DNA from: an uncultured Gammaproteobacteria bacterium
GTDB lineage: Bacteria > Patescibacteriota > Microgenomatia > Levybacterales > GWA1-39-11
Length of the DNA: 64,000 nt
Reading direction: 5' to 3'
Assembly: GCA_964427615.1 (NCBI GenBank)
Contig: CAYRUR010000001.1
Location: 219,241 to 283,240 of the forward strand
The notes below the pieces were generated by a model. It saw nothing but the letters and a program-made list of their open reading frames with translations. It was not told the DNA's origin and did not search any database. Positions 8,473-57,397 of this stretch are shown here, one piece after another. Both the position numbers and the translations under genes were made by a program. The stretch's first letter is position 1. Each line of letters opens with the position of its first letter.

Positions 8473-8745
8473 ATGCCGCTTACGACAGAAGAAAAAAAAC
8501 AAATTATAGAACAAAATGCAGTTGCCAAAGGAGACACTGGCAGTCCTGAAGTACAGATTGCACTCCTTTCTAATAAAATAGAAAAATTGACTGATCACTT
8601 AAAGATCCACCAAAAAGATTCACACTCTCGCAGAGGTCTTTTGAATATGCTTTCCAAAAGAAGAAGGCTCTATAGCTTTTTAGTGAAAGTTGACCCAAAT
8701 AGAGCAAAGGAAATAGCAGGGAAAGTAGGAATGAGAACAGCATGA
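8473..8745 (+). CDS. rpsO: 30S ribosomal protein S15
   Basis: MPLTTEEKKQIIE...LTDHLKIHQKDSHSRRGLL is a typical S15 sequence. Confidence 0.92.
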   Translation: MPLTTEEKKQIIEQNAVAKGDTGSPEVQIALLSNKIEKLTDHLKIHQKDSHSRRGLLNMLSKRRRLYSFLVKVDPNRAKEIAGKVGMRTA

Positions 8746-10958
8746 AACAAATCTCCAAATCTTTAGAACTCAACGGTAAAACAATAACCCTCGAAACAGG
8801 TGTTTTAGCAGAACAAGCTTCAGCAAGTATCTTAGCCCGAATGGGAGATACCGTCGTTTTGTCCACAGTCGTAATGGGGAAAAATGATACTACCCTCAAT
8901 TATTTTCCGTTAAGCGTTGAATATGTAGAGCGTCTCTATGCTGGTGGTAGAATTAAAGGCAGCAGATGGGTAAAACGAGACGGTAGACCAACTGAGGATG
9001 CTATTTTGACCGGAAGAGTTATAGATCGCTCTATTCGCCCCCTTTTTCCTAAAGAATTAAAAAAAGATGTTCAGGTAGTTGTGACGGTGCTTTCAGTTGA
9101 CGGAGAGAATGATCCTGGAATTTTAGGAGTTGTAGCAACTTCTGCAGCACTTGCTGTTTCTAATGTTCCTTGGAATGGTCCTATTGGTACAGTGCGCGTT
9201 GGTATTATGGGTGATTCTGAAACAAGAGAAGTTGTAATTAATCCTCATGCAGCAGAATCTCAATTTTTAGATTTGGACATGATTGTTTCCTCTTCTGTTA
9301 AAGGAAATGTAATCATGATTGAGTCAGGCGCACGAGAGGTAAAAGAAGATAGTGCACTGGAAGCGATTAAAAAAGCAAAAGAGGCAAATCAACAAATTAT
9401 CGAGTTCATTCAAGAACTAGTAAAAGAAATTGGTCAGCCAAAAATAGCAGTTGCCAAAGACGAAAGTCTTGAAGAAGCAGTAATGCTGGTTGAGAAAAGT
9501 TATAAAGACAAAATTGAAAAAATTGTTGAAGAAGGCGTAAATAAAGAAGTTGGTGGACAGTTAGATGAAATCGCTTCAGAAATTAGTGAAATTGAGGAAA
9601 GCATTGAAGACAAAAAGAAAATAAAAGAAGCTGTTGAATATGTTTTCAAAAAAACAATCCGAGAGAGAATCCTAAGAGACAAGAAAAGACCTGATGGAAG
9701 AGGTATTGATGAAATTAGACCTATTTTTGCTCGGGTTGGTGTACTTCCTAGAACTCATGGTTCTGGCATTTTTACCCGTGGACAGACACAAGCTTTAAGT
9801 GTGGCTACGCTTGGTTCTCCGGCAATGGAACAATTAATAGATGGTCCTGAAGGAGAAGAGACAAAGCGTTACATGCATCACTACTTTTTCCCACCTTACT
9901 CAGTAGGTGAAACAGGAAGAATTGGTTTTCCTTCACGCCGTGAGATAGGACATGGTGCATTGGCAGAAAGAGCATTGGTAGCCGTGCTCCCTTCTGAAAA
10001 AGATTTCCCTTATGCTATTCAAGTAGTGTCAGAAGTTATGTCTTCTAATGGATCTAGCTCTATGGCTTCTACTTGTGGTTCTACTCTTGCTTTGATGGAC
10101 GCAGGAGTTCCGCTTAAAAATCCAGTGGCAGGTATTGCGATTGGTCTTATGACAAAAGGAGATGACTATTCCGTACTAACTGATATTATCGGACTTGAAG
10201 ATTTCTCAGGAGATATGGACTTTAAAGTTGCCGGAACAAAAGAAGGTATTACTGCCATTCAATTAGATGTAAAGATTGACGGCTTAACTGATGAGATGAT
10301 TGTTGAGACTTTGGAAAAAGCTAAGAAGGCACGCTTGTTCATTTTGGACAAAATGCTGGCAGTTATTTCTGAGTCACGCAAAGAAGTTTCTCAATATGCT
10401 CCTAAGATTAAGACAGTTCAGATTAATCCTGAGAAAATTGGAGAAGTTATTGGTAGCGGTGGTAAGACGATTCGCCAAATTAGCAGCACAACAGGTGCCA
10501 CTGTCGATGTAGAAGAAGATGGAACTGTAACCCTTACCTCTATTGATGAAGCAGCAGTTGAGAAAGCAGCACATTGGATTGAGACGCTTACTAAAGAAGT
10601 ACAACCGGGTGAAGTTTTTGAAGGAACAGTCAAAAGAATTTTATCATTCGGAGCATTTGTAGAATTAGTTCCTGGAAAAGAAGGTATGGTACACGTCTCA
10701 GAAATGGCTGATGAATATGTACAAAATCCTGAAGATGTTGTGCAAATTGGCCAACAGGTAAAGGTACGAGTAAAAGAAGTAGATGATCAGGGAAGAATTA
10801 ACCTTTCTATGCGATTTGGAACAGCCGCAGAAGATGTTGAAAAAAAACAAAGCCGTGAAAGAGAAAGAGGCGGTAGAAGAGAGATGGCTGGAGCAGGAAG
10901 AGTAAAAGATAATTGGCCACGCAGAGATAATGGCAACCGCAGACCTCCTCGCCGTTAA
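8742..10958 (+). CDS. pnp: Polynucleotide phosphorylase
   Basis: Two RNase PH domains, KH and S1 motifs, and an R/G-rich C-terminal tail. It overlaps rpsO by 4 nt (ATGA). Confidence 0.92.
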   Translation: MKQISKSLELNGKTITLETGVLAEQASASILARMGDTVVLSTVVMGKNDTTLNYFPLSVEYVERLYAGGRIKGSRWVKRDGRPTEDAILTGRVIDRSIRPLFPKELKKDVQVVVTVLSVDGENDPGILGVVATSAALAVSNVPWNGPIGTVRVGIMGDSETREVVINPHAAESQFLDLDMIVSSSVKGNVIMIESGAREVKEDSALEAIKKAKEANQQIIEFIQELVKEIGQPKIAVAKDESLEEAVMLVEKSYKDKIEKIVEEGVNKEVGGQLDEIASEISEIEESIEDKKKIKEAVEYVFKKTIRERILRDKKRPDGRGIDEIRPIFARVGVLPRTHGSGIFTRGQTQALSVATLGSPAMEQLIDGPEGEETKRYMHHYFFPPYSVGETGRIGFPSRREIGHGALAERALVAVLPSEKDFPYAIQVVSEVMSSNGSSSMASTCGSTLALMDAGVPLKNPVAGIAIGLMTKGDDYSVLTDIIGLEDFSGDMDFKVAGTKEGITAIQLDVKIDGLTDEMIVETLEKAKKARLFILDKMLAVISESRKEVSQYAPKIKTVQINPEKIGEVIGSGGKTIRQISSTTGATVDVEEDGTVTLTSIDEAAVEKAAHWIETLTKEVQPGEVFEGTVKRILSFGAFVELVPGKEGMVHVSEMADEYVQNPEDVVQIGQQVKVRVKEVDDQGRINLSMRFGTAAEDVEKKQSRERERGGRREMAGAGRVKDNWPRRDNGNRRPPRR

Positions 10959-11141
10959 ATTGCTCTTTTTAGCATAATTCTATTTAGGCTCAGGCATGAT
11001 TATTAAGATCTTTTGCATTTGTTACTGAAACTTCTTTTATATATCTACCAGTGAACTGATTGAAAAAGAATGAATTTTGTTTTTTTGCCTTTTTTCAAGC
11101 AAGAAGTTTATCTGTCGATCTTTTAATGCTATAATTTTTAT

Positions 11142-12275
11142 ATGGACTCAAACACTGCTTCCTCAGAAGAAAATACTACTCACGCTCAGCAACAAGATGT
11201 GGTACAGCCATCATCTTCAGCAGCAACACGTGTAGATATACAAATTCAGAAGTTAGAAGAAAAGATAAAAAATGCTACTCTGCCTCCTGACCTCCTTGAA
11301 AAATCCCAAAGTATGGTGGAGCGTTTGAAGCTGATTTCCCGAGAAAGCAGTTTTTTTATTGAGTATGACAGTACTGCTCGTTATATTGATTGGATGACAG
11401 CGCTTCCTTGGGAAAATGCTTCTCAGGATATTTTGGATTTAAATCATGCCAAGCAGGTGTTTGAAAAACACCATTACGGGATGAAGGATGTAAAGGAGAA
11501 AGTAATGGAGTATTTATCTATTATGATTTTAAATAAAGCACGGGGAGAAGAATTTGCTAGAGCACCTATTATTTCACTTGTAGGACTAGTAGGTACTGGT
11601 AAAACAACCGTTGCTTACTCTATTGCTGAGGCATTGGGCAGAAAAATTGAGAGAATTCCTTTTGGAGGTATGGGATCTGCCAAACAATTAAGAGGTCAAT
11701 CACGCTTTTCGCCTGATGCAGAGCCAGGACTGGTGATGAAAGCTATCAGAAGAGCGGGTACTAAAAATCCGGTTATTCTGCTTGATGAAATTGATAGAGT
11801 GAGTGCTGATGCTAGAGCAGATATTATGGGTGTGTTAGTAGAAATGCTAGATCCTGGACAAAATAAATTTTTTACTGATCATTTTATTGATTATCCATTT
11901 GATTTATCTCATGTGCTTTTTATTGCTACATCCAATAATACAAAAGACATTTCAACAGCAGTACTTGATAGACTTGAGATCATTCAAATGCCTTCCTATA
12001 ATGACGATGAGAAGACAGTAATTGCCAAAAATTACATTTTCCCCAAAGTTTTAAAAGAGTCAGGACTCACAGAACGTGATATAGTAATAGATGATAATGT
12101 ATGGCCAGAGATTGTGCGTCCTCTTGGATATGACTCAGGAATTAGAAGTTTGGGTAGGACTATTCAAGGAATGGTAAGAAGAATTGCGTTATATACACTT
12201 GAGGGACGTATTCCTCAGGGGAAAGGATTTCGGGTAACAGTGCAAAACGTGAAACAACTGGTACCACAATGGTAA
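11142..12275 (+). CDS. Lon-like AAA+ ATPase module without the S16 protease domain and without most of the Lon N-domain
   Basis: Walker A is GLVGTGKTT and Walker B is ILLDEIDRV. Sensor-1 is FIATSNN and the Arg finger is LDRLEIIQM. The Lon-specific stretch HHYGMKDVKEKVMEYLSI is present. The ORF stops 19 nt before rnj with no protease domain downstream. TATAAT lies 6 nt before the ATG. Confidence 0.75.
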   Translation: MDSNTASSEENTTHAQQQDVVQPSSSAATRVDIQIQKLEEKIKNATLPPDLLEKSQSMVERLKLISRESSFFIEYDSTARYIDWMTALPWENASQDILDLNHAKQVFEKHHYGMKDVKEKVMEYLSIMILNKARGEEFARAPIISLVGLVGTGKTTVAYSIAEALGRKIERIPFGGMGSAKQLRGQSRFSPDAEPGLVMKAIRRAGTKNPVILLDEIDRVSADARADIMGVLVEMLDPGQNKFFTDHFIDYPFDLSHVLFIATSNNTKDISTAVLDRLEIIQMPSYNDDEKTVIAKNYIFPKVLKESGLTERDIVIDDNVWPEIVRPLGYDSGIRSLGRTIQGMVRRIALYTLEGRIPQGKGFRVTVQNVKQLVPQW

Positions 12276-12293
12276 AATAGGTAAAATAAGCAT

Positions 12294-13943
12294 ATGGAGA
12301 AAAAAGTATCACTTATTCCAATCGGCGGTATTGGAGATGTAACCAAAAATATGTATGTGTATGAGTATCAGGACGAGATACTCATTGTGGATTGTGGCAT
12401 TGGATTTGCTGATGAGTCCATGATTGGCGTTGATTTGCTTATTCCGGATATTACCTACTTAAAACAAACAAAGAAAAAGATCGTAGGTATGATACTTTCT
12501 CATGGCCATGAGGACCATATTGGAGCTATCCCTTGGATTCTACCTCAGCTGCCAGCCTTTCCTATCTACGGTTCAACACTTACTGCAGCTTTTGCCAATG
12601 AAAAAATAAAGGAATTTAATATCAATAGAAAGGTAGAGGAAATGGAATTTTGTAAAGAAATTACCGTAGGCTCATTTAAGGTAACTCCGGTAAGAGTCAC
12701 TCACTCTATTCTTGATGCTGCGAATCTTTTTATTAAGACCCCTGCAGGCAATTTTTATCATGGCAGTGATTTTAAATTCGATTTTACTCCAGTAGATGGA
12801 AAGCAAACAGATATTCGCAAGATTGCACAAATGGGAGAAGAAGGCATTATGTGTGCCTTGATAGATAGTCTTGGGAGTGAAAAAAGTGGACTTTCTCTAT
12901 CAGAAAAGAGCTTATCTGAAAGTTTTGAGGAAGAGTTTCAAAAGACAAAAGGCAAAATTTTTGTTTCTACCTATTCTTCTAATATTTCTCGGTTTAACCA
13001 AGCAATTGATTTAGCTAAAAAATACAATCGCAAAGTAATGCTCATGGGACGTTCATTTTTGCGCTCTCGAGATGTTGGTAGAAGACTGGGATACATGGAT
13101 TTTCCTGAGACTATGGAATTAAAACCTCATCAAGTCAAGAATATTCCTGCCAATCAAGTACTCATTTTAGTTGCCGGAAGCCAAGCACAGATTTCCTCAG
13201 CTTTGGTGCGCATTGCCAATGATAATGACCGTGATATCACTATTAACAAAGGAGATACTGTTATTTTCTCCTCTGATCCAATTCCAGGAAATGAAGAAAG
13301 TATTAACGCGTTGATTGATACCATTTCTAAAAAACAGGCCAGAGTCAGATATAGTCAAAGTGAAGATGATTATCATGTGTCAGGACATGGATCTCAAGCG
13401 GATATCAAACTGATGATTTCTCTTACGAATGCACAATACCTCTTACCAATTGGTGGACAGTATAGACACATGGTAGGATTTCGGGAGATTGCTGAAAGTA
13501 TGGGATATGAGGAAAATCAGGTTATTATTCCTGAAAATGGCAGTGAGATAGTGTTCACACAGGGGAAGTATAGTGTGGGCAGAAAAATTCCAGTTGCCTC
13601 GGTTATGCTAGATCAAATTACAGGCCAGGAAATGGATAATTATGTAGTCAGAGACAGGATGAAAATTGCACAAGAAGGAATTGCTATCATCATCGTTGAG
13701 ATCCATGAGCAAACAGGAAAAATTCTTTCAGAGCCAGATATTATAACTAAAGGATTTACGTTGAATAACAAAAAAAGATATGTTCAAGGGCTTTATGCAA
13801 TTTTAAGACAAACATTTGGTGAGAGAAAAGATAAGGTAAATAACTGGGGATACTATAAAAAAATTATTGAAGAACGGGGTGAAGAACTGTTTTTTAAGGA
13901 GGGGAAAGAGCCTCTGGTTGTGCCAGTCATCATTGAATCATAA
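12294..13943 (+). CDS. rnj: Ribonuclease J (metallo-beta-lactamase/beta-CASP)
   Basis: HGHEDHIG motif and the RNase J-type N-terminus KVSLIPIGGIGDVTKNM. Confidence 0.88.
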   Translation: MEKKVSLIPIGGIGDVTKNMYVYEYQDEILIVDCGIGFADESMIGVDLLIPDITYLKQTKKKIVGMILSHGHEDHIGAIPWILPQLPAFPIYGSTLTAAFANEKIKEFNINRKVEEMEFCKEITVGSFKVTPVRVTHSILDAANLFIKTPAGNFYHGSDFKFDFTPVDGKQTDIRKIAQMGEEGIMCALIDSLGSEKSGLSLSEKSLSESFEEEFQKTKGKIFVSTYSSNISRFNQAIDLAKKYNRKVMLMGRSFLRSRDVGRRLGYMDFPETMELKPHQVKNIPANQVLILVAGSQAQISSALVRIANDNDRDITINKGDTVIFSSDPIPGNEESINALIDTISKKQARVRYSQSEDDYHVSGHGSQADIKLMISLTNAQYLLPIGGQYRHMVGFREIAESMGYEENQVIIPENGSEIVFTQGKYSVGRKIPVASVMLDQITGQEMDNYVVRDRMKIAQEGIAIIIVEIHEQTGKILSEPDIITKGFTLNNKKRYVQGLYAILRQTFGERKDKVNNWGYYKKIIEERGEELFFKEGKEPLVVPVIIES

Positions 13944-14009
13944 TTAGATAGTGCTTCTCGTGATTTTACCATACAGAGTTGATAATAGTGTATAATTCTT
14001 CATATTGCT

Positions 14010-16136
14010 ATGGCACGAAAGAAATACAAAAAAAGAAAAGGAGGAGTAAAGTTAAAGAAAAATACTGTTTACACTCTTTTTTCTGTTGGATTATTATTTT
14101 TAGGGGTTTTTCTTCTGGCTTCTTACACACAAAATGGACCTTTGCTTGCTACTGCTCACAGCTACTTATCTTACTTTTTTGGTCCCCTTTCTTTTTTGGT
14201 GCCTATTAACTTTATTCTTATTGCGTTGATGTTGACTAGGTTAAAGTCTCGTTTTGCTCAGCCGACATTGTCTATTGGTTTTCTTTTTTTCTCAGCATGT
14301 TTTATTTCGCTTCTTGGTTCAGGAGTGGCAGGACAGATGATGAAGGATAATCTGGTCGCATTTTTAGGAGGCGCTTTAGCTGTTATTTTTCTGATTTTAG
14401 GAACATTTCTTGGGATTATTGTTTTTTTAAATATTTCGTTACAGCAACTCTTTCAAGGAATTATGGTTGCTTCTCAGGACTTAGCACATGTGTTTAAGAC
14501 GCGCATTGTGCCTCTTTTTAAAGTCCAAAAAGTAAATCTTCCAGATCCTAAGCAAATTACCATTAAAGGCTTGCCACAAGAGATGCCTGCCTCCAGTCCT
14601 AAAGTCAATGAAAGACGTCCTGAAGTGCCTAAACAAGATCCAAAGAAGGCAGAAATATCTGATGAATTAGTATTAAATCAGCCGTTGGAGATGGGAGTCT
14701 GGGAGTACCCTCCTTTAGCCTTACTGTCTGATCAGGCAGATAAAAAAGCAGAGCGAGGAGATGTAAAAGCTACTGCTAGCACAATAGAAAAAACGCTGCA
14801 AAGCTTTGGAATAAAAGCTCGGGTAGTAGAAATTAATTTAGGACCTTCGGTTACTCAGTATGCTATAGAAATTGCGTTAGGAACTAAGCTCTCTAAAATT
14901 ACTGGTCTTGCCAATGATTTGGCTTTGGCAACAGAAGCACCAACCGGTCAGGTCAGAATTGAGGCGCCAATTCCAGGAAGAAGTTTGGTAGGTATTGAAA
15001 TTCCTAATAGGTCTCTTGAAGTAGTATCTCTCAAAACACTGCTTGCTTCCTCTCAGATGCAGAAGAACAAATCAAAACTAGCTATTCCACTGGGTCTTGA
15101 TGTAGCGGGTAATCCGGTGATTGCTGATATTACCAAAATGCCTCACGTACTTATTGCCGGTACCACCGGGTCTGGTAAATCTGTGTCCATGAATACATTT
15201 ATTTCCTCTATCTTATTTAGAGCTTCTCCATCAGAGGTTAAGATGATTATGATTGATCCTAAGCGCGTGGAGCTTACCGGATATAATGATATTCCTCATC
15301 TGCTTACTCCTGTGGTGGTAGAAGCAGATAAAAGCGTTTCAGCACTTAAGTGGGCATTAAAAGAGATGGACAAGCGGTATACAAAATTTGCAGAGGCAGG
15401 AGTACGTAATCTCGACTCCTATAACGAACTTTCAGGATTTCAAGCAATTCCTTACATTGTTATTTTTATTGATGAATTTGCAGATTTGATGGCGCTTGCT
15501 CCAGCCGAGGTGGAGGATTCCATTACCAGACTTGCCCAAATGGCTCGTGCTACTGGTATTCATTTAGTACTGGCAACCCAAAGACCATCAGTAGATGTTA
15601 TTACTGGTCTTATTAAAGCCAATGTGCCGTGTCGTATGGCTTTTAGCGTTTCTTCTATGGTAGATAGTAAGGTAGTGTTGGATGCACCGGGAGCAGAAAA
15701 ACTGTTGGGCAAAGGTGATATGTTGTATATTCCTCCGGATCAAGCAAAACCTACCCGTATTCAAGGCTGTTTTGTCTCAGAACAAGACACAAAACGGTTA
15801 GTAAACTTTATTAAAGCACGTGGTATTCCGGTACAGTACACAACAGAAGTAGTAGAGCAAGAAGTACATATTAAAGGAAGAGGGGCTTCTGGGAGTGCAA
15901 CAGCCAGTGGAACAGACTCAGATAAGGATGAGTTATTTGCCGAAGCAGTACGTATTGTGTGTCAGTATGATAGAGCGTCTTCGTCTCTTTTGCAAAGAAA
16001 GCTTTCTATTGGGTTTAACCGTGCTGCTCGTATTATGGAACAACTGGAACAGTTTGGTGTAGTAAGTCCTGGAGATGGTTCCAAGCCTCGTGATGTTATT
16101 ATTACCAACCCCGACGAGTTTTTAAGCCAAGTGTAG
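14010..16136 (+). CDS. ftsK: DNA translocase FtsK/SpoIIIE
   Basis: N-terminal TM segments. Walker A is GTTGSGKS, followed by DPKRVEL and Walker B FIDEFADL. A C-terminal winged-helix gamma domain is present. Confidence 0.9.
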   Translation: MARKKYKKRKGGVKLKKNTVYTLFSVGLLFLGVFLLASYTQNGPLLATAHSYLSYFFGPLSFLVPINFILIALMLTRLKSRFAQPTLSIGFLFFSACFISLLGSGVAGQMMKDNLVAFLGGALAVIFLILGTFLGIIVFLNISLQQLFQGIMVASQDLAHVFKTRIVPLFKVQKVNLPDPKQITIKGLPQEMPASSPKVNERRPEVPKQDPKKAEISDELVLNQPLEMGVWEYPPLALLSDQADKKAERGDVKATASTIEKTLQSFGIKARVVEINLGPSVTQYAIEIALGTKLSKITGLANDLALATEAPTGQVRIEAPIPGRSLVGIEIPNRSLEVVSLKTLLASSQMQKNKSKLAIPLGLDVAGNPVIADITKMPHVLIAGTTGSGKSVSMNTFISSILFRASPSEVKMIMIDPKRVELTGYNDIPHLLTPVVVEADKSVSALKWALKEMDKRYTKFAEAGVRNLDSYNELSGFQAIPYIVIFIDEFADLMALAPAEVEDSITRLAQMARATGIHLVLATQRPSVDVITGLIKANVPCRMAFSVSSMVDSKVVLDAPGAEKLLGKGDMLYIPPDQAKPTRIQGCFVSEQDTKRLVNFIKARGIPVQYTTEVVEQEVHIKGRGASGSATASGTDSDKDELFAEAVRIVCQYDRASSSLLQRKLSIGFNRAARIMEQLEQFGVVSPGDGSKPRDVIITNPDEFLSQV

Positions 16137-27939: not shown

Positions 27940-30165
27940 ATGAATATTCTGCCCTTTCTGAAAAAAACAAAAGAAGAAAGAGAATACTTTCTTGCACTTA
28001 TTCTGAAGCAAAACAGAATCGGTGCTATTCTCTTTGAAAAGACTGCAAAAGGACTTGATGTGCTTACCTCCTCTGATCAGGAGCAGAAAAATCTGCAAAG
28101 CTTAACCGATGAGGAGCTTATTGAAGCATCTGATGCAGTTATTTCCACTGTTGAGAAAAGCCTTCCTCCTCACATAGATCTTAAAAAAACCATTTTTGCT
28201 ATTCCGTATACCTGGCAAGATGAAGGAAAAATAAAACCTGAAAACCTGACAAGATTGAAGAAAGTGTGTCAGGAATTAGATCTTACACCAGTTGGTTTTA
28301 TTGTCTCTATTGAAGCTATGATTCATGCCCTGCAGCAGAAGGAGGGAGCCTCTTTATCTGCTCTGTTTGTGGAAGTAGAGAAAAAAGAGGTTCATGTTTT
28401 CTTAGTAAAGAACGGAAAAATACTGCAAGTTAAAAATGGAGAATGGCAAAGCTCTGTGGTGGATACCGTAGAAAAACTACTAAAAGATATAGAAGAAGTT
28501 GAGGTGCTTCCTCCCCGTATTTTTTTGCAAGATGATAAAGAAAGTCATGCTATCCAGCAATCATTTTTGCATCACAGTTGGCCAGCAGACCTCCCCTTTT
28601 TACATGTTCCACAGGTGATTGTGTTTGAAAAAGGGTTTGAAAACGAGGCACTGATTCATGGTGTAGCCTCTCAAATGGGAGTTGAGATGTCTTTTGCCAA
28701 ACAAGACACTCAGCCTGCTGAGGAAGAAAGTGTAGAAAATGCAATTGAGCCAGTCGAAGAGCTTGAACATATTGATAAACAAGCCAATTTTTATAAAGAA
28801 GTAGATGTGCGATTTGAGAAAGCTCCGGTTGAAGAGGAAAAGGAAGATAAGCCTGAAGCTTCTTTTGCGCAGGAAAGCAGCAGTGTGCCTACCCATGCTT
28901 TACCCTTAGCAGAAGAAACCTCAGAGAAAAAAGAATCTTTCCTAAAAAAGATACGGACATTAGCTATCGTGGGAAGTCTTAAAGAAAAAATGAGTAGTAT
29001 CTCTCTTCCTTCCTTTTTAGGTGGGTCGAATATGCGTCTTAAAATTGGAGGAGGTATAGCAGTAGGCATACTTCTATTAGTAGCTTTTGTGTATTCCTAC
29101 TATGCCTTTATAACTCGAGCGGAGATTGTGCTTTTTTTGGATAAAAGAATGGTAACAGAAGAAGTGCCGGTAACCTTTTCTACAGAAGATGAGACCTCTG
29201 TAGAAGATGCAGTTATTCGTCTTGCTACTACCTCTCAAGAACTGGAAGGCTCAGCCAAACAAAAAACAACCGGTAAAAAAGAAACGGGTGAAAAAGCAAA
29301 GGGAGAAGTGACTATTTATAACAAGACTGATGAACCGCAAACAATTGAAAAAGGAACTATCCTTAGTTCTTCAAATGATTTAGAATTTGAGACATTAGAT
29401 GAGGTAAAAGTTGCCTCGACCAGTTCTTTTTCTACTTCATTTTCGAGTAGTAAAGTAAGTGTCGAAGCAAGAAAATTAGGCAAAGAATACAATCTCCCTT
29501 CTGCTACTAACTTTACGGTTGAGTCTTTTTCTTCCTCAGAGGTGTTTGCGAAAAATGACTCTGCTTTTTCAGGAGGTTCTAAAAAAGAATTAAAAGTAGT
29601 GTCTGAAAAAGATTTAGCAGATCTTGAAGAAGCTATTGAAAAGCAATTGAGTGAGAAGGTATCGTCTTCTTTATCAAGTGGTGAAAGTGGCGATACAGTT
29701 ATTCCTGCTATTCTTGCGACAGAATTTGTAGAGAAAAAATTCAGTAAAAAAGAAGGAGAAGAAGCAGAGGAAGTATCTCTATCAGCAAAACTGGCCTTTG
29801 AAATTGGAAGATATAACGAAGAAGATTTAGAAAGCTTTGCCCAAGAACTAACCAATGAATCTATTCCAGAGGGGTATACCTATGTAAAAGATGAATCGCG
29901 TATTCAAATAGAAGATGTAGAAGTAACAGAAGGTGCGATGAATGGGGTTTTGGCTGTGGAGGCAGTGTATGTACCTGCACTTGAAGTAGACACTTTAGCA
30001 AAAGACCAGCAAAGAAAGAGTAAAAAAGAGGTAGAAAAGCAATTACAGGAGCTAAAAGGTGTGTCTGATGTTACCGTAATTTTGAAAAACCAGTTGCCAT
30101 TGTTGCCTGCATTGCTTCCTTTTAATGCCAAGCATATTATCATTCAAACGAAAGCTCATGAGTAA
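27940..30165 (+). CDS. Bitopic membrane protein: N-terminal cytoplasmic domain of about 350 aa, one TM helix, and a Ser/Glu/Lys-rich exodomain
   Basis: Its start abuts the alaS stop. The TM helix is GGGIAVGILLLVAFVYSYYAFI. The N-terminal domain has a weak actin-like (FtsA/PilM-like) appearance, which is speculative. Confidence 0.55.
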   Translation: MNILPFLKKTKEEREYFLALILKQNRIGAILFEKTAKGLDVLTSSDQEQKNLQSLTDEELIEASDAVISTVEKSLPPHIDLKKTIFAIPYTWQDEGKIKPENLTRLKKVCQELDLTPVGFIVSIEAMIHALQQKEGASLSALFVEVEKKEVHVFLVKNGKILQVKNGEWQSSVVDTVEKLLKDIEEVEVLPPRIFLQDDKESHAIQQSFLHHSWPADLPFLHVPQVIVFEKGFENEALIHGVASQMGVEMSFAKQDTQPAEEESVENAIEPVEELEHIDKQANFYKEVDVRFEKAPVEEEKEDKPEASFAQESSSVPTHALPLAEETSEKKESFLKKIRTLAIVGSLKEKMSSISLPSFLGGSNMRLKIGGGIAVGILLLVAFVYSYYAFITRAEIVLFLDKRMVTEEVPVTFSTEDETSVEDAVIRLATTSQELEGSAKQKTTGKKETGEKAKGEVTIYNKTDEPQTIEKGTILSSSNDLEFETLDEVKVASTSSFSTSFSSSKVSVEARKLGKEYNLPSATNFTVESFSSSEVFAKNDSAFSGGSKKELKVVSEKDLADLEEAIEKQLSEKVSSSLSSGESGDTVIPAILATEFVEKKFSKKEGEEAEEVSLSAKLAFEIGRYNEEDLESFAQELTNESIPEGYTYVKDESRIQIEDVEVTEGAMNGVLAVEAVYVPALEVDTLAKDQQRKSKKEVEKQLQELKGVSDVTVILKNQLPLLPALLPFNAKHIIIQTKAHE

Positions 30166-47292: not shown

Positions 47293-48474
47293 ATGGCTCG
47301 CAAAAAAATCTCTGAATACGCAGCAAAGAACTTATTGTACCGTTTTTTAGACACTCCTTATACTGGTATTAGTATCCACTCATCACAAGATTTAGAAAAA
47401 ATACAAACCCTCTCAACTGAGAAAACATATGTCGTAAAAGTTGATGAAGGGGTAAAGGGAAGGTTTAAGAAAGGGTTGGTGTTACTTGATGTTACCAAAG
47501 AGGACATACCTGCATCCATAAAAAAATTAGAAGAAAAAGGATATACCCAGTTTTTAGTTGAAGAGTTTTACCATTATAAGGCAGAAGAAGAGCATTATTT
47601 AGCAATTGAAAGAGTACGAGAGGGATACAAATTGCTGTATTCTGAAAAAGGTGGCATTGCCATTGAGGAACATGTAGCAGCAGTACAAGAAAAGATTTTC
47701 ACTACCAAAGAAGGAATAGAATCTGTTGCTACAGAATTACATCTGGATCCTTTACTGTTGCTCAATATTTTGGAGGTTTTTGATGCGTATTACTTCTCCT
47801 TTTTAGAAATAAATCCTTTTATTAAAAAAGACAACCGCTTTATTCCTGTTGACCTAGCAGTAGAAGTAGACAGTGCAGGTGCATTTTTTGTGCAGAACGG
47901 CTGGAAGCAAGAGGATATGGTGGAAGAAGGAAAAGACAAAACAAAAGAGGAAAAAAATATTGATATGCTCTCTTCCAAAAGCCAGGCTTCTTTTAAATTG
48001 AATATGTTGCATACAGATGGTTCTCTTTTTATGCTCTTATCAGGTGGGGGAGCAAGCCTGGTAGTAGCAGATGAGGCATATAATTTAGGTTTTGGCAAAG
48101 AAGTAGCAAATTATGGCGAATATAGTGGCAATCCAACAGAAGAGGAGACATATATTTACACGAAAAATTTGTTACAGCTTTTACTACAATCAAGCGCAAA
48201 ACAAAAAATGCTGATAATAGCAGGGGGAGTGGCCAATTTTACGGATGTAAGGATTACGTTTAGGGGTATTATAAAAGCACTGGATGAAGTAAAAGAAACC
48301 TTGCAACAAGAAGAGGTAAAAGTATATGTAAGACGAGGTGGACCTAACCAAGAAGAAGGTTTGGCAATGATGAAAGAATTCTTAACAAAAGAACAGCTGT
48401 ATGGACAGGTAAGTGGTCCTGAAATTGTCTTAACAGATGTTGTTAAAAATGCAGTTGCGTTACTTGAAAAATAA
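47293..48474 (+). CDS. aclB: ATP-citrate lyase beta (small, ATP-grasp) subunit
   Basis: By-eye alignment to human ACLY N-terminus. MARKKISEYAAKNLLYRFL matches MSAKAISEQTGKELLYKFI. SGGGASLVVADE...ANYGEYSGNP and IIAGGVANFTDV...VRRGGPNQEEGL also match. Confidence 0.85.
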   Translation: MARKKISEYAAKNLLYRFLDTPYTGISIHSSQDLEKIQTLSTEKTYVVKVDEGVKGRFKKGLVLLDVTKEDIPASIKKLEEKGYTQFLVEEFYHYKAEEEHYLAIERVREGYKLLYSEKGGIAIEEHVAAVQEKIFTTKEGIESVATELHLDPLLLLNILEVFDAYYFSFLEINPFIKKDNRFIPVDLAVEVDSAGAFFVQNGWKQEDMVEEGKDKTKEEKNIDMLSSKSQASFKLNMLHTDGSLFMLLSGGGASLVVADEAYNLGFGKEVANYGEYSGNPTEEETYIYTKNLLQLLLQSSAKQKMLIIAGGVANFTDVRITFRGIIKALDEVKETLQQEEVKVYVRRGGPNQEEGLAMMKEFLTKEQLYGQVSGPEIVLTDVVKNAVALLEK

Positions 48475-48476
48475 CT

Positions 48477-50261
48477 ATGCTTACGATATCAAATATTAGA
48501 AAAACAGCGCACACCATACTCTGTATTGGTAGTCATCCAGGCATTATTCAGTCTATGCTGGATTTTGACTATTTAGCTGGTAAAAAAGAGCCAAGTGTAG
48601 TTGCTATTCTTGCAGCAGGAAGAAATTCTGAAAAGTATTTCTTTGGCAAAAGGGAAATACTCCTACCAGTGTATCACTCATTGCAAGCAATTCCAGAAGA
48701 GGTAAAACAGCACATTACCCTCTTTTTAAATCTGTCCTCTGCCAGAAGAGTGCTTTCTAGCACCCAAGATGTACTAGAACAGCTTCCAAACATACAGGGA
48801 GGAGCAATTTTTGCAGAAGATGTGCCTGAAAAACACTCACTAGATCTTTATCAAATAACTCGAGAAAAAGGAGTTTTTATAGTGGGTCCGGCAAGTGTGG
48901 GACTGCTTATTCCAGGAGTACTCAAGTTAGGTGCAGTTGGTGGGGTCGATATGCGGCAGTTAGTCGATTCACATTTATTTACTTCCGGAAGTGTGGCAGT
49001 ATTTTCAGCCTCCGGTGGGATGACGAATGAATTAATTCGTATTGTAACGCAGCAAGGAAAGCGCCTTTCTTTTGCTCTTGCTTTTGGAGGAGATAGATTT
49101 CCCATTACGAGTCCAGAGGACGCACTGCTTGCAGCTGAGCAAGATCCTGACACTGATACTATCTGCTACTTTGGAGAATTAGGAGGAACAGATGAGTATG
49201 TTATTGCTCAATTGTTGCATGAGAAAAAAATAACCAAAAAAGTCATTTGTTATATTGCTGGTGTTATTGCGGACCTTTTTGAAACTCCTCCCCAATTTGG
49301 ACACGCCAAAGCCATGGCAAAAGACAAACAGGAAAGCGCACAAGAAAAGAGAAAAATCTTACAAGAAGCAGGAGCTATTGTGCCTGAGTCTTTCACTGCA
49401 TTTGTAGAAGAGATAAAAAAGCTTCCTACAATCTCCTATAAAGAAGTAGATGTAACCGAAAAAATGCAGGCGATAAGAAGTCGAAAAAAAGCTCTTTTTT
49501 CCTCTTCTATCTCAGGTGATAAAGACGGACAAGCACAGATACTAGGTATTGATTTACTTACTTTTGCTAAAAGCCATTCGTTTGCTGCTACTGTTGCCTC
49601 TCTTTTTCTGGGACGGGAAGTCCAGTCAAAAGAAGTGGAAGACTTTATTGATTTTATCCTCCGCTTGTTAGTGGATCATGGGCCGTATCAATCAGGAGCA
49701 GTGAATACCATGATTACTGCTCGTGCGGGAAAGGACTTGCCATCAGCACTTGCATCAGGCATTTTAACGATTGGACCTCGTTTTGGCGGAGCAGTAAATC
49801 AGGCAGCTTTGAATTGGCTGAAAGGTGCAGAGAGTAAAAAATCGGTTATAGAATTTGTGGAGGACTTTGCTAGAAGAAAGGAATATATTTCAGGCATTGG
49901 ACATAAAAAATACAGAATTGACTTTCCAGATCCAAGGGTTGAGGAAATCTTAAAATTTACAGATGGTCTCAAAGAGAAAAAGTACGTGCAATTTGCACAA
50001 TCAGTAGAAAAAGTTACCGCAACCAAAAAAGGTAATTTGATTTTAAATGTTGATGGTGCCATTGCAGCAGTTTTGCTGGACTTATTGAGCGAAAAAGAGG
50101 GGATGAATGAGCAAGAGCTACAAAAATTGGCAGAACATGAATTCTTTAATGCACTCTTTATTGCTTCCCGTTCTATTGGTTTTATTGCTCACTATTTGGA
50201 TCAAAAAAGGCTTGATGAAGGGTTATTTAGATTATCAGAAGATGATGTGCTAGGAGTTTAA
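48477..50261 (+). CDS. aclA: ATP-citrate lyase alpha (large) subunit: CoA-binding/phospho-His domain plus a citrate-synthase-like domain
   Basis: [28 protein letters not shown] and the phospho-His motif QFGHAKA are present. The C-terminal domain [43 protein letters not shown] is near-identical to the ACLY stretch [54 protein letters not shown] also matches. Confidence 0.88.
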   Translation: [594 protein letters not shown]

Positions 50262-52828: not shown

Positions 52829-54037
52829 ATGGATAATGATATTGAAAGTAAAGTAAAAAACTTTGGAAGAGGTAGTGAAAAGAAACTTTCTTTACCAGGA
52901 GGTAATGAGCCGCAGACAAAACAATTTGAGGAGAGATTGAAAGATGTATCTTCACAGGAAACTTTTCCTCCGGAAAATGAAATTGATGCCGTACGGGCAA
53001 AGATTCATACACTGACGGGACAAAAGGACGACGAAGGAAGTTTAGGACAAAATGTTGATGTAGCAACTGGTGATGTGCTTGAGGATAGAAATGAAGAGGA
53101 GAGATTTACCCGAAGAAAAGCTATGGAAAAAGGACTTAAACTTGGATTGGGTGGAATTGCTTGGGCAGCTGGAATTAATGCCTTGAATTGGATCCGAGGA
53201 AACAATGATAGAAGAGGTCCCTTTGAACGGACACCAGAAAGAATGCCATACACCGCAGAACAAGTACCCGATGTTGAAATGGAAAGGATACCACAACGAG
53301 ATATGTCTTTTTATAATCTTTTATTTCCCAATTTAGAAAATCTAGGAGAAGAAGCACAAGATGCGTTGGCGACAGAAGTAGAAAAATACAGAAATGATTA
53401 CTTACAAAAAGAACGTGTTGTGATTGATGAAATCATAAGTAAAAGAGATCCTGTAATTCAGGAAGTGGTTGAAAACATAAAAGGTATTGATGACGAAAGA
53501 AAAGTATTTTTGAGAAAAGCATTAGGAGGGATTATTTTTGCAGAGTCTAGAAATGTTGAAAATCCTTCCGAGGATGAGGATGTTGTGGGATTGTGTCAGG
53601 TAAAGACTGGCACTGCTGGTCTTTCAAGGGAAGCATTGCTTCATCCAGAAACAAATATCAAAGCTGCAGCAGAGTATTTAAACACATTGTGTAATACCAT
53701 ACCAGACCGTGCATTAGCTTTGTGGGCATATAATATTGGGGAAGGAAATATTGCATATTTTATGGGGAACTATTTAAACGCATTAGACTCTAAAACTCCA
53801 GAAATGATAGAAGATATACAAGAGATGCTAGATAAAAATAGTGAAGCACGAGTAAATTTGATTGAAAAGTATATTAACAATGGGATGGTAGATTTTTATA
53901 CGCTTGTGTCTTCTTCAACTGTTGATAATGTAATAAAATCAGAAATTGATGAAGAGGAAACGTCAGGATATGTATATCGAGTTGCCGGAGCAGCTTTAGC
54001 AGCAGAACAGCGAACAGCAGAAATGAAGTTAGGATAA
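52829..54037 (+). CDS. Membrane-anchored lytic transglycosylase (SLT domain)
   Basis: Hydrophobic helix GLKLGLGGIAWAAGINALNWI. SLT motif AESRNVENPSEDEDVVGLCQVKTGTA with catalytic Glu in ES, plus AYNIGEGN. Confidence 0.7.
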   Translation: MDNDIESKVKNFGRGSEKKLSLPGGNEPQTKQFEERLKDVSSQETFPPENEIDAVRAKIHTLTGQKDDEGSLGQNVDVATGDVLEDRNEEERFTRRKAMEKGLKLGLGGIAWAAGINALNWIRGNNDRRGPFERTPERMPYTAEQVPDVEMERIPQRDMSFYNLLFPNLENLGEEAQDALATEVEKYRNDYLQKERVVIDEIISKRDPVIQEVVENIKGIDDERKVFLRKALGGIIFAESRNVENPSEDEDVVGLCQVKTGTAGLSREALLHPETNIKAAAEYLNTLCNTIPDRALALWAYNIGEGNIAYFMGNYLNALDSKTPEMIEDIQEMLDKNSEARVNLIEKYINNGMVDFYTLVSSSTVDNVIKSEIDEEETSGYVYRVAGAALAAEQRTAEMKLG

Positions 54038-54781: not shown

Positions 54782-57397
54782 TTACTTTAAATAAAACGTC
54801 TCTCCATCGGAGATCTTGGATTTGGGTTTGTTCTTGTCCTCAGTTTGTTTTGACTGTTTTTCTTGATTTTTATCATGTGGTTTTTTATCGGTATATTGTT
54901 TTTGCTGAGCTTGATGATGTTGTACATTTTTATGGTCTTTTGATTGTTTTTTTTCAGAAGAAGGATTGTGTTGTGGATGCTGTTTTGCAGTCTGTTGAGT
55001 TGGTTGGCCTTGTTTTGCCTGTGCTTTTTCTTCTTGCTTTTGGGCAGGATGATTTGTTGGTTGTCCGGCTGAATGGTGGGGTTTTTCCTGTTGTTTGACT
55101 GGAGTTTTTACCTCTTGGTTTTTGACAGAAGCAGTAACTGATAAGTCAGATTGTTTTTGCTGTGGTAGATTACTTGGTGCTCTTTGCTCTTGTTTAGGTG
55201 CTGGCCCGTCATATTTTTTATATTCAGGTTTTTCTACTACTAAAGGAGTTATCGTTTTATAATATCTTTCCTGAGATCCTTTTAAGACTTTTGGCCTATT
55301 TTGGTTACGACTATTAGGTAACGGCAAAGTTTGAGCCAAAAATGGAGAGCTTGTCATACCATCAATAGAGAGTCTGGTAATAATTTGATGCCTTCCAAGT
55401 GCGAGAATATCCTCTGCCTGGTATCTTTCTCCAAATTCTTTGGCTAAAATATCTAAATCCTCAGCTCCCACTAAAAAGGTCATGAGTGTGCCGACATTTC
55501 CAAAAATAGCACTTTTCAGTTCCGGTGGAAGTTGAGCCATGTACTGATTAGCAAGTGTTAAATTTAGACGATACTTGCGTGCCTCAGATAAGATTTTAAT
55601 AAAGGAGGTAGTGGCAAAGTTCTGGAACTCGTCAACATAGAGAAAGAAGTCCTTACGTTCTGCTTCAGGTATATACACACGATTCATGGCCGCCAATTGT
55701 AGTTTGGTAATAGTCATAGCACCTAGCAATGCAGAGTTATCTTCTCCCATTTTTCCTTGTGAAAGGTTGAAAAGCAGGATTTTTCTGTTGTTCATAATGT
55801 CTTCCAGATCAATAGTTGATTTAGGGTGTCCTACGATATTGCGGATAACATTGGAGGATAAAAATTGTCCTACTTTATTTAAAATTGGAGAGGTTGATTC
55901 TGTCATCATACGGTCATTCATTTTATTGAACTCATCCAGCCAGAAGGCTTTGATGACAGGATCAGTAACATATGTTTCTACAACTCTAGTGCGATATTTG
56001 TCATCTGTTAGAATGCGTGGTACGAGCATAAGTGTAGCATTGGGAATTTCAAGTAAAGTTAGAATAGTATTGCGTAAAATATACTCCAGTCGCGGTCCCC
56101 AAGAGTTTCCGTATAATTTATAGAAAATCGCTACGATACCGGAGGCAATCAGATCTTTTTGTGAAAGATCTTCATCCAATGGATTTAAATGAAATGATTT
56201 GCCTGTTCCTTCTGTGGGACTCAGATATACTACATCATTAATGCGATATGAAGGAATATAATCTAGGATTGTTTCACATAAATCTCCGTGAGGATCAATA
56301 ACTGCCAGTCCTTCACCATTTCTAATATCGTTGATTACCATATTAGCAATAAGCGTTGATTTTCCGACACCTGTTTTTCCGATGATATAGGTGTGTTTTC
56401 TCCTATCAATACGCTTCATACCAAAAGTAGAGAGGGTATTGCGAAAATAGGTTTTTGCAAAAAAATTAATTTCTTTTTTTCCTTCTGCATCAAGTCCTAA
56501 AGCAATGGGGAGGTCTTCTGGAGCATCAGAAAAAATTGTTTTTGCCCAGGAGATGTTGTGGATAGTTGAAAGTTGTTTGCCAGGAAAATGGAAAAGGGTA
56601 GCAATCTCTGAAAGATTTAGTATTTGGCCTGTAGGGATAAAAGATCCGCTACGGGTGATAAAAGCAGTATGTAGCTTGTCCTTTTGCCATAGATAAGGTT
56701 TTTTAAGCGACAGGCTGTTTCCGCTTGCGTTATTAAAGCCTGAAAAAGCAGTGGCGATTTGCAAAAAGAGGTCTTTATTAGGGCTTTTGACAAAGAGGCG
56801 GATACCTACCTTAAAACCATGTTGTCCTATTTTTTCACCAATCACCGCTGCATGAGGATTGGTAGAAGTAGTGCCGTCTGCGTTGGTGGTCTTTTTTTCC
56901 ATTTGTGCTCTTCCACTTGACTGCCAACTATTGCCAATTGGGACCAATAAATACTGAATGACCACCTGATCTTCTTGGGTAAGCTTTGATAACAAGCCTA
57001 ATAGTGAGGAAAGAGGGTCTACTTCCTTAAAATCAGTATATGTTTTTAAGGGGAGCAGATGTGATTGGTTGAGTGTAAGTTGTCCTTCGCGGATAGGAGC
57101 AGTAGGTTGGAGAACATACTTTAGGTAGTCTTCTTGCAAATGTCTTATTTGGGAATGTGGGTACTGTGAGTAAATCTGGCTTTCAATAAAGGGGGCAAGT
57201 GCTTTTGGGAGGACAACATAAAAATAAATAGTCTGGTCAAAAACAGCAATTTCAAAACTGATAGGAATGCCCTTTTTGATGAAAAAATAATGGGTTTTGC
57301 GCAGATTGGTAAGACTGGCTAACAACTGTACCATTACTTCCGGAGTTTCTTCACCAGTGCGTGGTGTTTTTATCTCTAAAATAGCCTTTTCTTCCAT
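54782..57397 (-). CDS. VirD4/TraG/TraD-like type IV coupling protein ATPase, soluble, with a long Gln/Lys-rich disordered tail
   Basis: Walker A is GKTGVGKST, followed about 20 aa later by VIDPHGD and then NPLD. Walker B is FLYVDEFQNF, and RLNLTLANQYMAQL is the T4CP Q-motif. No N-terminal TM helices. SD AGAGGT upstream. Confidence 0.7.
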   Translation of the reverse strand: MEEKAILEIKTPRTGEETPEVMVQLLASLTNLRKTHYFFIKKGIPISFEIAVFDQTIYFYVVLPKALAPFIESQIYSQYPHSQIRHLQEDYLKYVLQPTAPIREGQLTLNQSHLLPLKTYTDFKEVDPLSSLLGLLSKLTQEDQVVIQYLLVPIGNSWQSSGRAQMEKKTTNADGTTSTNPHAAVIGEKIGQHGFKVGIRLFVKSPNKDLFLQIATAFSGFNNASGNSLSLKKPYLWQKDKLHTAFITRSGSFIPTGQILNLSEIATLFHFPGKQLSTIHNISWAKTIFSDAPEDLPIALGLDAEGKKEINFFAKTYFRNTLSTFGMKRIDRRKHTYIIGKTGVGKSTLIANMVINDIRNGEGLAVIDPHGDLCETILDYIPSYRINDVVYLSPTEGTGKSFHLNPLDEDLSQKDLIASGIVAIFYKLYGNSWGPRLEYILRNTILTLLEIPNATLMLVPRILTDDKYRTRVVETYVTDPVIKAFWLDEFNKMNDRMMTESTSPILNKVGQFLSSNVIRNIVGHPKSTIDLEDIMNNRKILLFNLSQGKMGEDNSALLGAMTITKLQLAAMNRVYIPEAERKDFFLYVDEFQNFATTSFIKILSEARKYRLNLTLANQYMAQLPPELKSAIFGNVGTLMTFLVGAEDLDILAKEFGERYQAEDILALGRHQIITRLSIDGMTSSPFLAQTLPLPNSRNQNRPKVLKGSQERYYKTITPLVVEKPEYKKYDGPAPKQEQRAPSNLPQQKQSDLSVTASVKNQEVKTPVKQQEKPHHSAGQPTNHPAQKQEEKAQAKQGQPTQQTAKQHPQHNPSSEKKQSKDHKNVQHHQAQQKQYTDKKPHDKNQEKQSKQTEDKNKPKSKISDGETFYLK

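Follow-up and report, generated by a model that had tools for sequence, protein, structure and literature searches.

A LonA-derived AAA+ ATPase without a protease domain in bacteria of the candidate phyla radiation

In the 64,000-nucleotide stretch of contig CAYRUR010000001.1 analysed here, referred to as the window, a gene located between those for polynucleotide phosphorylase (pnp) and RNase J (rnj) encodes an AAA+ ATPase derived from the LonA protease. The open reading frame (ORF), which runs from an ATG to a TAA codon, specifies 377 residues according to its sequence and translation, and the protein is LonA from the helical bundle through the lid and no more. Relatives that end at the same point are spread over many lineages of the candidate phyla radiation (CPR, the Patescibacteria, with their tiny genomes), and this protease-less Lon ATPase of CPR bacteria is an undescribed offshoot of a well-known enzyme; the literature on Lon in Patescibacteria or CPR bacteria (open-access papers and bioRxiv) yielded no description of a protease-less Lon family. 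From the functional perspective, the family is read here, tentatively, as an oligomeric ATPase that may remodel proteins independently of any protease and without the classical threading by aromatic paddles.

An earlier note on this DNA had described the gene as a Lon AAA+ module encoded without an S16 protease domain or a substrate-binding N domain, and profile searches bear this out. In Pfam, the protein matches AAA over residues 146-282 and Lon_lid over residues 305-356, and neither LON_substr_bdg (PF02190) nor Lon_C (PF05362) is matched anywhere in its 377 residues, even at E<=0.1. The lon equivalog of NCBIfam, TIGR00763, gives 314.1 bits against a cut-off of 608 and is matched only at positions 254-566 of its 795; the next-best Clp-type model of the same collection, ClpA, reaches 25 bits against the 314 of lon, and RuvB reaches 12.8-14 bits. 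Neither Pfam nor NCBIfam holds a model specific to the protease-less CPR family. The top matches among solved structures are all LonA proteases, with residues 245-562 of Meiothermus taiwanensis Lon (7yph) aligned at E=1e-73, and the alignment to LonA is contiguous, with no insertion in the AAA+ core. An AlphaFold2 monomer model built from 85 family sequences has a predicted local distance difference test (pLDDT) score of 89 and a predicted template modelling (pTM) score of 0.83, with the N-terminal 24 residues disordered, and Foldseek pairs it with the AAA+ modules of LONP1, YpLon (Y. pestis), MtaLon and EcLon at a template modelling (TM) score of ~0.8 and a probability of 1.00. The place of the ~240-residue substrate-binding N domain of LonA is occupied by a tail of 33 residues, after which the helical bundle is predicted to comprise helices at residues 25-44, 49-64, 71-87, 100-110 and 115-133, the first of them beginning within the tail; P48, P89, W90, H111, G113 and K118 are conserved in this part of the protein.

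The ATPase motifs, which the earlier note had found intact in the window protein, are invariant in all of the 120 closest members. This holds for the P-loop, of the form GL.G.GKT in the family versus GPPGVGKT in LonA, with L149 in place of the canonical proline, and for N265, D276 and R277, which are also invariant in 40/40 LonA sequences. Within the lid, G333, the sensor-2 arginine R335 (120/120) and L337 are invariant, and sensor-2 is surrounded by the family signature 'RPLG[YF]D.G[IV]R'. As all the residues for ATP binding and hydrolysis are kept, the protein would be a competent AAA+ ATPase of the HCLR clade, as judged from its motifs. Because the Arg finger completes the active site of a neighbouring subunit, action as an oligomer, probably a hexameric ring, would be expected.

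The extent of the family was established by a homologue search of a database of 5.8 billion proteins, the figures resting on the 120 closest clusters. These homologues are 62-78% identical to the window protein and 347-477 residues long, and PF05362 is found in none of them. Those that bear a name are called either 'AAA family ATPase' (Levybacteria, Woesebacteria, 'Patescibacteria group') or, in records of the Joint Genome Institute (JGI), 'ATP-dependent Lon protease'. When one genome was scanned for each GTDB species, more than 565 relatives came up; the best 80 loci were used, 67 from CPR bacteria and 13 with a canonical Lon; ORF ends and gene order were compared over 69 distinct CPR loci, and S16 domains were sought around 71. 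The CPR records are titled Levy-, Woese-, Shapiro-, Ames-, Roizman-, Davies-, Gottesmanbacteria, WWE3, Dojka-, Nomura- and Saccharibacteria, although the taxon names used throughout are those of the record titles, many of which are evidently wrong. Many species-representative contigs (L006-L008, L013-L018, L021, L023, L025, L031-L033, L036 and others) have the look of mislabelled or mis-binned metagenome-assembled genomes, as they combine a gene order and proteins of Microgenomates type with titles such as 'uncultured Gammaproteobacteria', 'Pseudomonadales' or 'Candidatus Methanoperedens'.

Across the 69 distinct loci, the ORFs measure 340-472 residues (two that are cut by a contig end excepted) and all of them stop at the linker between lid and protease domain, the complete ones within a few residues of the end of the window protein. 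Within 10 kb on either side of the 71 CPR loci, tblastn detected no S16 domain, and the same search, as a positive control, placed one directly after the AAA+ module in 13/13 canonical Lon loci. Neighbour-joining, a simple distance method, was applied to 251 columns, with 42 modules of canonical LonA and those of Lon proteins with tandem AAA+ domains for comparison, and it unites the 73 core members in a single clade in 100/100 bootstraps. The mean identity is 56% within the family and 58% among canonical LonA modules. As far as sequence comparison can tell, the truncation is thus single, old and selectively maintained across Patescibacteria. The phylogenetic comparison with Lon AAA+ modules that the earlier note had called for returns a monophyletic core family with a constant domain boundary, which upholds its view of a stand-alone, Lon-derived ATPase outside the LonA, LonB and LonC architectures.

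The prior expectation that Lon always has a protease domain, together with the JGI name 'ATP-dependent Lon protease' given to homologues, could suggest a pseudogene, a frameshift or an assembly artefact of a normal full-length lon. This explanation is refuted by the comparative data and its probability is practically nil. The stop position is common to all the distinct loci just described, from many CPR classes; the homologues keep 62-78% identity, and an 85-sequence family alignment has 35 invariant columns; and the rnj start codon follows closely. The identical 377-residue protein recurs on further contigs, with a separate Logan assembly of SRR7082976 among their sources, which argues against a sequencing error, and the GC content is uniform, at ~38%, over the window. 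When all frames of the window were searched by tblastn with three S16 domains, nothing was found (best E-value 1.3), and hence no frameshifted protease domain lies downstream. A tblastn search of the window with the protein itself returned only that protein, with no second copy or full-length lon, and no second Lon-like match occurs in any of the CPR loci compared. Of the two circumstances that the earlier note had regarded as fatal to its proposal, an in-frame protease domain after error correction is contradicted by the absence of S16 in every frame, and a pseudogene fragment by a conservation that is too strong for it, both in the ATPase motifs and in the invariant columns.

Besides the core, the family has a divergent subgroup from records of Saccharibacteria, Dojkabacteria and Nomurabacteria, with the P-loop GLQGVGKTS (L059, L060, L061, L064, L066 and L067, and also P0144, P0143, P0145, P0147 and P0157). 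The six loci of this subgroup end in a conserved '...DQGPLS', and some members carry long low-complexity extensions at the N or C terminus. P0157 (548 residues, 44% identity) was considered as a protease-bearing missing link and rejected, its last 190 residues being low-complexity Ser/Asn sequence with no BLAST match to Lon_C.

Although the catalytic motifs are those of Lon, the two loops that, in Lon, line the central pore and drive the substrate through it differ. Pore-loop 1, which reads RGQSRFSPDAEPG in the window protein, follows the pattern R-G-x-[ST]-[RK]-x-x-x-[DE]-[AS]-E-P-G in the family, versus R-G-H-R-R-T-Y-[VI]-G-A-M-P-G in canonical LonA, so that an acidic motif, [DE]-A-E-P-G, stands in for G-A-M-P-G. 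The position of the canonical tyrosine is aromatic in 26/78 family members versus 42/42 canonical sequences (F189-S190 in the window protein), position 192 is acidic in 68/78 members and E194 is present in 75/78. Pore-loop 2 has [DE]-A-R-A-D-I-M in the family in place of the canonical S-x-D-[FYW]-R-G-D-P; its position 224 is never aromatic in the family (0/78, versus 31/42 in canonical LonA), and A224 of the window protein corresponds to Trp431 of M. taiwanensis Lon. In that enzyme, Tyr397 and Trp431 touch the translocating polypeptide and both are needed for degradation (PMC8503904). The module as a whole is mildly acidic in the family, with a mean isoelectric point (pI) of 6.5 and a net charge of -2.4, and basic in canonical LonA, with a pI of 8.0 and a charge of +2.8. 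Judging by these alignments, both pore loops are systematically remodelled and the pore is partly acidic.

These observations are accommodated by a scheme in which a LonA AAA+ module that has shed its N-terminal substrate-binding domain and its S16 domain once, and is kept in Patescibacteria, would work as a probably hexameric ring that uses ATP to remodel proteins, or to act as a chaperone, with no proteolysis involved. This would be the known chaperone side of Lon, turned into a separate activity within a minimal proteostasis network. With a pore that lacks the aromatic paddles and carries acidic residues, classical threading in the manner of Lon would be improbable, and the pore would more likely grip or release a narrower set of clients, perhaps basic ones. 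A protease-independent remodeller is the most economical explanation because no protease is encoded nearby and the residues for threading are not conserved, and a hint of a proteostasis role is given by the seven loci at which the gene adjoins groES-groEL. Several points weigh against this remodeller. Its oligomerisation and chaperone activity are both predicted from sequence features; the LonA hexamer owes much of its stability to the protease and N domains, and with no partner a lone AAA+ module may be a poor assembler. Unfolding of the threading type is at odds with the changed pore loops, which makes 'chaperone' a loose label, and the commonest neighbours are genes of RNA turnover, pnp and rnj, rather than chaperone genes. 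Moreover, the search for S16 domains covered the window and 10 kb to either side of each locus, that for other peptidases the most recurrent neighbour clusters, and the conserved C-terminal tail could serve to dock a partner whose gene lies elsewhere. On balance, the remodeller is preferred, with a confidence that falls somewhat short of even.

The same tail figures in a second possibility, namely that the protein supplies the ATPase of a two-component protease, comparable to HslU-HslV or ClpX-ClpP. Its ring would dock, perhaps through the tail, onto a peptidase encoded elsewhere in the genome, which could be an S16 domain that has split off or a self-compartmentalised enzyme of unrelated origin. 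The C-terminal tails of HslU activate HslV, and here the protein, with its ATPase motifs all intact, ends exactly at the lid/protease linker with a tail that is strongly conserved among the closer members (N369 in 130/131 and W377 in 121/131 sequences), at positions where the LonA residues are variable; the 'DQGPLS' ending of the divergent subgroup would be its counterpart there. A distant partner is compatible with a peptidase search that was local in scope. Nevertheless, some family members lack the terminal aromatic residue, and split genes usually stay adjacent, yet no S16 domain was found in the window or within 10 kb of the 71 CPR loci and no peptidase is present among the ten most recurrent neighbour clusters, as scanned against Pfam. 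In addition, the loss of the pore aromatics fits poorly with the feeding of a polypeptide into a degradation chamber. A two-component protease is accordingly held to be unlikely. The earlier note had offered an unfoldase or chaperone, or a partner of a separately encoded peptidase, as possible roles. It had overlooked the pore loops, whose remodelling weakens the classical arrangement of an unfoldase that feeds a peptidase, and its separately encoded partner is excluded, as far as S16 is concerned, for the neighbourhood of 10 kb on either side.

The positions of the gene, of the parts of its product and of its two neighbours are collected in Table 1.

Table 1. Coordinates, within the window, of the ATPase gene, of the segments of the encoded protein and of the flanking genes.
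Feature	Residues	Position	Strand	Basis and remarks
pnp (polynucleotide phosphorylase), upstream neighbour		8742..10958	+	Pfam RNase_PH, KH, S1
Protease-less LonA-derived AAA+ ATPase gene, complete	1-377	11142..12275	+	TIGR00763 partial match, LonA structures, AlphaFold2 model
N-terminal tail	1-33	11142..11240	+	Low-complexity, variable; predicted disorder, pLDDT <50 for residues 1-24; length varies among homologues
LonA-type helical bundle	34-133	11241..11540	+	Equivalent to ~245 to ~343 of M. taiwanensis Lon (7yph alignment)
Walker A / P-loop, G148-L-V-G-T-G-K-T155	148-155	11583..11606	+	G148, G151, G153, K154, T155 invariant, 120/120
Pore-loop 1, R-G-Q-S-R-F-S-P-D-A-E-P-G	184-196	11691..11729	+	Column counts
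Walker B, V211-I-L-L-D-E216	211-216	11772..11789	+	D215, E216 invariant in family and LonA
Pore-loop 2, S-A-D-A-R-A-D-I-M	221-229	11802..11828	+	Column counts
Sensor-1 N265 (11934-11936) to trans-acting Arg finger R277 (11970-11972)	265-277	11934..11972	+	Column counts
Lon-type lid (small alpha-helical AAA+ subdomain)	286-356	11997..12209	+	Pfam Lon_lid 305-356; holds sensor-2 R335 (12144-12146)
Conserved C-terminal tail, ...F-R-V-T-V-Q-N-V-K-Q-L-V-P-Q-W	357-377	12210..12272	+	Stops exactly where LonA has its lid-to-protease linker
rnj (RNase J), downstream neighbour		12294..13943	+	Pfam Lactamase_B, RNase_J_b_CASP, RNase_J_C; 18-nt spacer

The gene starts 183 nt after the end of pnp. The close proximity of rnj, which the earlier note placed 19 nt beyond the stop, is real, but that figure is the difference between the start and stop coordinates and the spacer itself is one nucleotide shorter. 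Both neighbours form part of a collinear block, nusA-infB-(DHH protein)-rpsO-pnp-ATPase gene-rnj-ftsK-HTH (the last a helix-turn-helix gene), that is encountered in Microgenomates, in WWE3 and at one locus labelled Saccharibacteria, down to ~45% identity. Over the 69 distinct CPR loci, pnp lies upstream in 42 and rnj downstream in 47, with both present in 37, only rnj in 10, only pnp in 5 and neither in 17. The rnj gene begins <=200 nt away in 25 of them, and in L003 its called start precedes the stop of the family gene by 7 nt; at other loci with rnj on that side, one to three unrelated genes, such as one for uracil-DNA glycosylase, lie in between. By comparison, none of the 13 canonical lon loci adjoins pnp or rnj.

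From this arrangement, the protein may be regarded as an accessory ATPase of RNA turnover that acts with PNPase and RNase J, either by remodelling or recycling their ribonucleoprotein substrates or by regulating the nucleases, and a role of this kind would explain the fixed place of the gene between pnp and rnj. The maintained gene order, the short distances to rnj with the overlap in L003, and the difference from canonical lon loci all speak for it. On the other hand, the block is collinear throughout, so that adjacency may be inherited gene order; unrelated genes are often inserted before rnj; the 17 loci with neither neighbour have the gene beside groESL or a VirB4-like gene; and a mildly acidic module with an acidic pore is unfavourable to RNA binding. 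An RNA-turnover ATPase is therefore considered rather unlikely. A bolder combination would have Patescibacteria, whose proteostasis networks are minimal, convert the Lon protease into an acid-lined, paddle-free and protease-free ATPase that either remodels basic RNA-binding or ribosomal proteins in connection with decay by PNPase and RNase J, or activates an unrelated peptidase by docking through its tail; this proposal is doubtful, and if true it would represent a mode of working not known for any Lon.

Given that LonA binds DNA via its ATPase region and that the DNA motor RuvB is a fellow member of the HCLR clade, the family could also have retained the DNA binding of Lon and serve as a nucleic-acid-binding or regulatory ATPase in chromosome or transcription processes. 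The place of the gene between nusA, infB and pnp on one side and ftsK, a recurrent downstream neighbour, on the other would suit such a function. The module is, however, more acidic than canonical LonA, with additional Asp and Glu in its pore loops, every top family match is to Lon, with RuvB far below, and the Pfam scan of the 377-residue protein reveals no DNA-binding domain, which makes a nucleic-acid ATPase very improbable.

Outside the block, the gene stands divergently beside groES-groEL at the seven loci already mentioned (L022, L024, L025 with groEL only, L040, L049, L052 and L068), two of which are titled Roizmanbacteria, and in the 'DQGPLS' subgroup it adjoins genes for a VirB4/TraG-like ATPase and a PrgI-family protein. 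Control by heat shock through HrcA and its operator, the controlling inverted repeat of chaperone expression (CIRCE), was examined and finds no support: when the 400 nt before each of 71 family genes were searched with mismatches allowed, a single weak match (4 mismatches) came up and none in the window, and no CIRCE operator was detected in the shared intergenic region of the groES-groEL loci. An anti-phage defence ATPase (BREX BrxL or other PADLOC families) was likewise discarded, as the best PADLOC match, DolB at 39.5 bits, is generic AAA+ similarity and the context is one of housekeeping genes. A promoter and terminator scan of positions 10800-14200 gave counts at the level of shuffled sequence, and an Rfam scan of the whole window found no family at its gathering score.

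Further features of the neighbouring DNA were observed in passing. The PNPase encoded upstream (8742-10958) has at its C-terminal end an Arg-rich tail of ~45 residues (...RERERGGRREMAGAGRVKDNWPRRDNGNRRPPRR); this basic extension and the ATPase with the acidified pore, whose gene follows directly, are noted as a juxtaposition. Farther along the window, two adjacent forward-strand genes (47293-48474 and 48477-50261) look like the subunit pair of ATP-citrate lyase or citryl-CoA synthetase, the first with a citrate-binding domain and ATP-grasp, the second with a CoA-ligase and a citrate-synthase C-terminal domain, and such a pair is unexpected in a CPR genome of sparse metabolism. The window also encodes a 741-residue protein with a Baseplate_J-like domain (27940-30165, +), an SLT lytic transglycosylase (52829-54037, +) and a TrwB/VirD4-like coupling ATPase of 870 residues (54782-57397, -), which may form part of a secretion, DNA-transfer or phage-tail-like apparatus. 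A contig of 7.3 kb reaches ~5.5 kb beyond the end of the window, into genes for MgtC and RecQ.

Among quality-control proteases, Lon ranks with the most conserved. A conserved and widespread lineage that has only the ATPase and a rewired pore represents a natural separation-of-function variant. With the CPR family, the activity of the Lon motor in the absence of proteolysis could be tested directly, a matter relevant to the chaperone activity of Lon that has long been discussed, and so could the extent to which the chemistry of the pore loops may change while an AAA+ ring still works. The family would gain in interest if it proved to have taken the place of Lon in its hosts or to take part in RNA decay. 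Annotation is also affected: reconstructions of CPR metabolism and proteostasis, as well as function tables, may credit genomes with a Lon protease that they do not encode. The JGI label 'ATP-dependent Lon protease' is attached to the protease-less proteins P0010, P0011, P0030, P0061, P0071, P0080 and P0104.

With regard to known systems, Lon proteins with tandem AAA+ modules share with the CPR family the use of the LonA AAA+ module as an evolutionarily mobile unit, but they keep a C-terminal S16 domain and their modules lack the CPR pore-loop signature and fall outside the family clade, for which reasons the idea that the stand-alone protein is the split-off first ring of such an enzyme was rejected. 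The tandem class itself comprises P0121, P0122, P0123, P0125 and ~30 representative clusters with two or three Lon-type AAA+ modules and one S16 domain, among them P0121 from Candidatus Dependentiae, with 1113 residues, three AAA modules and Lon_C; we know of no description of such 'double-ring' Lon proteases. HslU-HslV and ClpX-ClpP resemble the family in that the ATPase, of the same AAA+ clade, is separately encoded and, for HslU, in the conserved C-terminal tail. They differ in that the sequence of the CPR family is Lon-like, that no peptidase gene was found nearby and that the pore aromatics are not conserved.

The closest relative is LonA itself (endopeptidase La; MEROPS S16; TIGR00763), as known from M. 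taiwanensis, E. coli, Mesoplasma florum and human LONP1, whose helical bundle, AAA+ core and lid are homologous to those of the family at ~37-45% identity. Walker A and B, sensor-1, the Arg finger and sensor-2 are of the same type, and the stretch 'F.DH[FY][IL]D.P.DLS' before sensor-1 is kept. The CPR family lacks the N-terminal substrate-binding domain and the S16 Ser-Lys protease domain, does not conserve the Tyr-[Ile/Val] of pore-loop 1 or the aromatic residue of pore-loop 2, has the P-loop GL.G.GKT and is more acidic; it belongs to LonA in its AAA+ module and departs from it in lacking the protease and N domains, in scoring below the curated cut-off and in its pore loops. In published classifications, a protease domain comes after the ATPase in each of the LonA, LonB, LonC and LonBA classes; the ATPase is degenerate in LonC, LonB has a membrane-anchor insertion in the AAA+ module, and LonBA is a hybrid in architecture (PMC9569914). 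LonB, LonC and LonBA resemble the CPR family in being Lon variants with one altered module or without an accessory domain, and LonBA has no long N domain either. According to two reports, LonC, for instance that of M. taiwanensis, has lost ATPase activity and kept proteolysis (PMC3391209, PMC13069640). The CPR family, with neither an S16 domain nor an insertion in the AAA+ module, is its mirror image, in which the protease is gone and the ATPase is kept.

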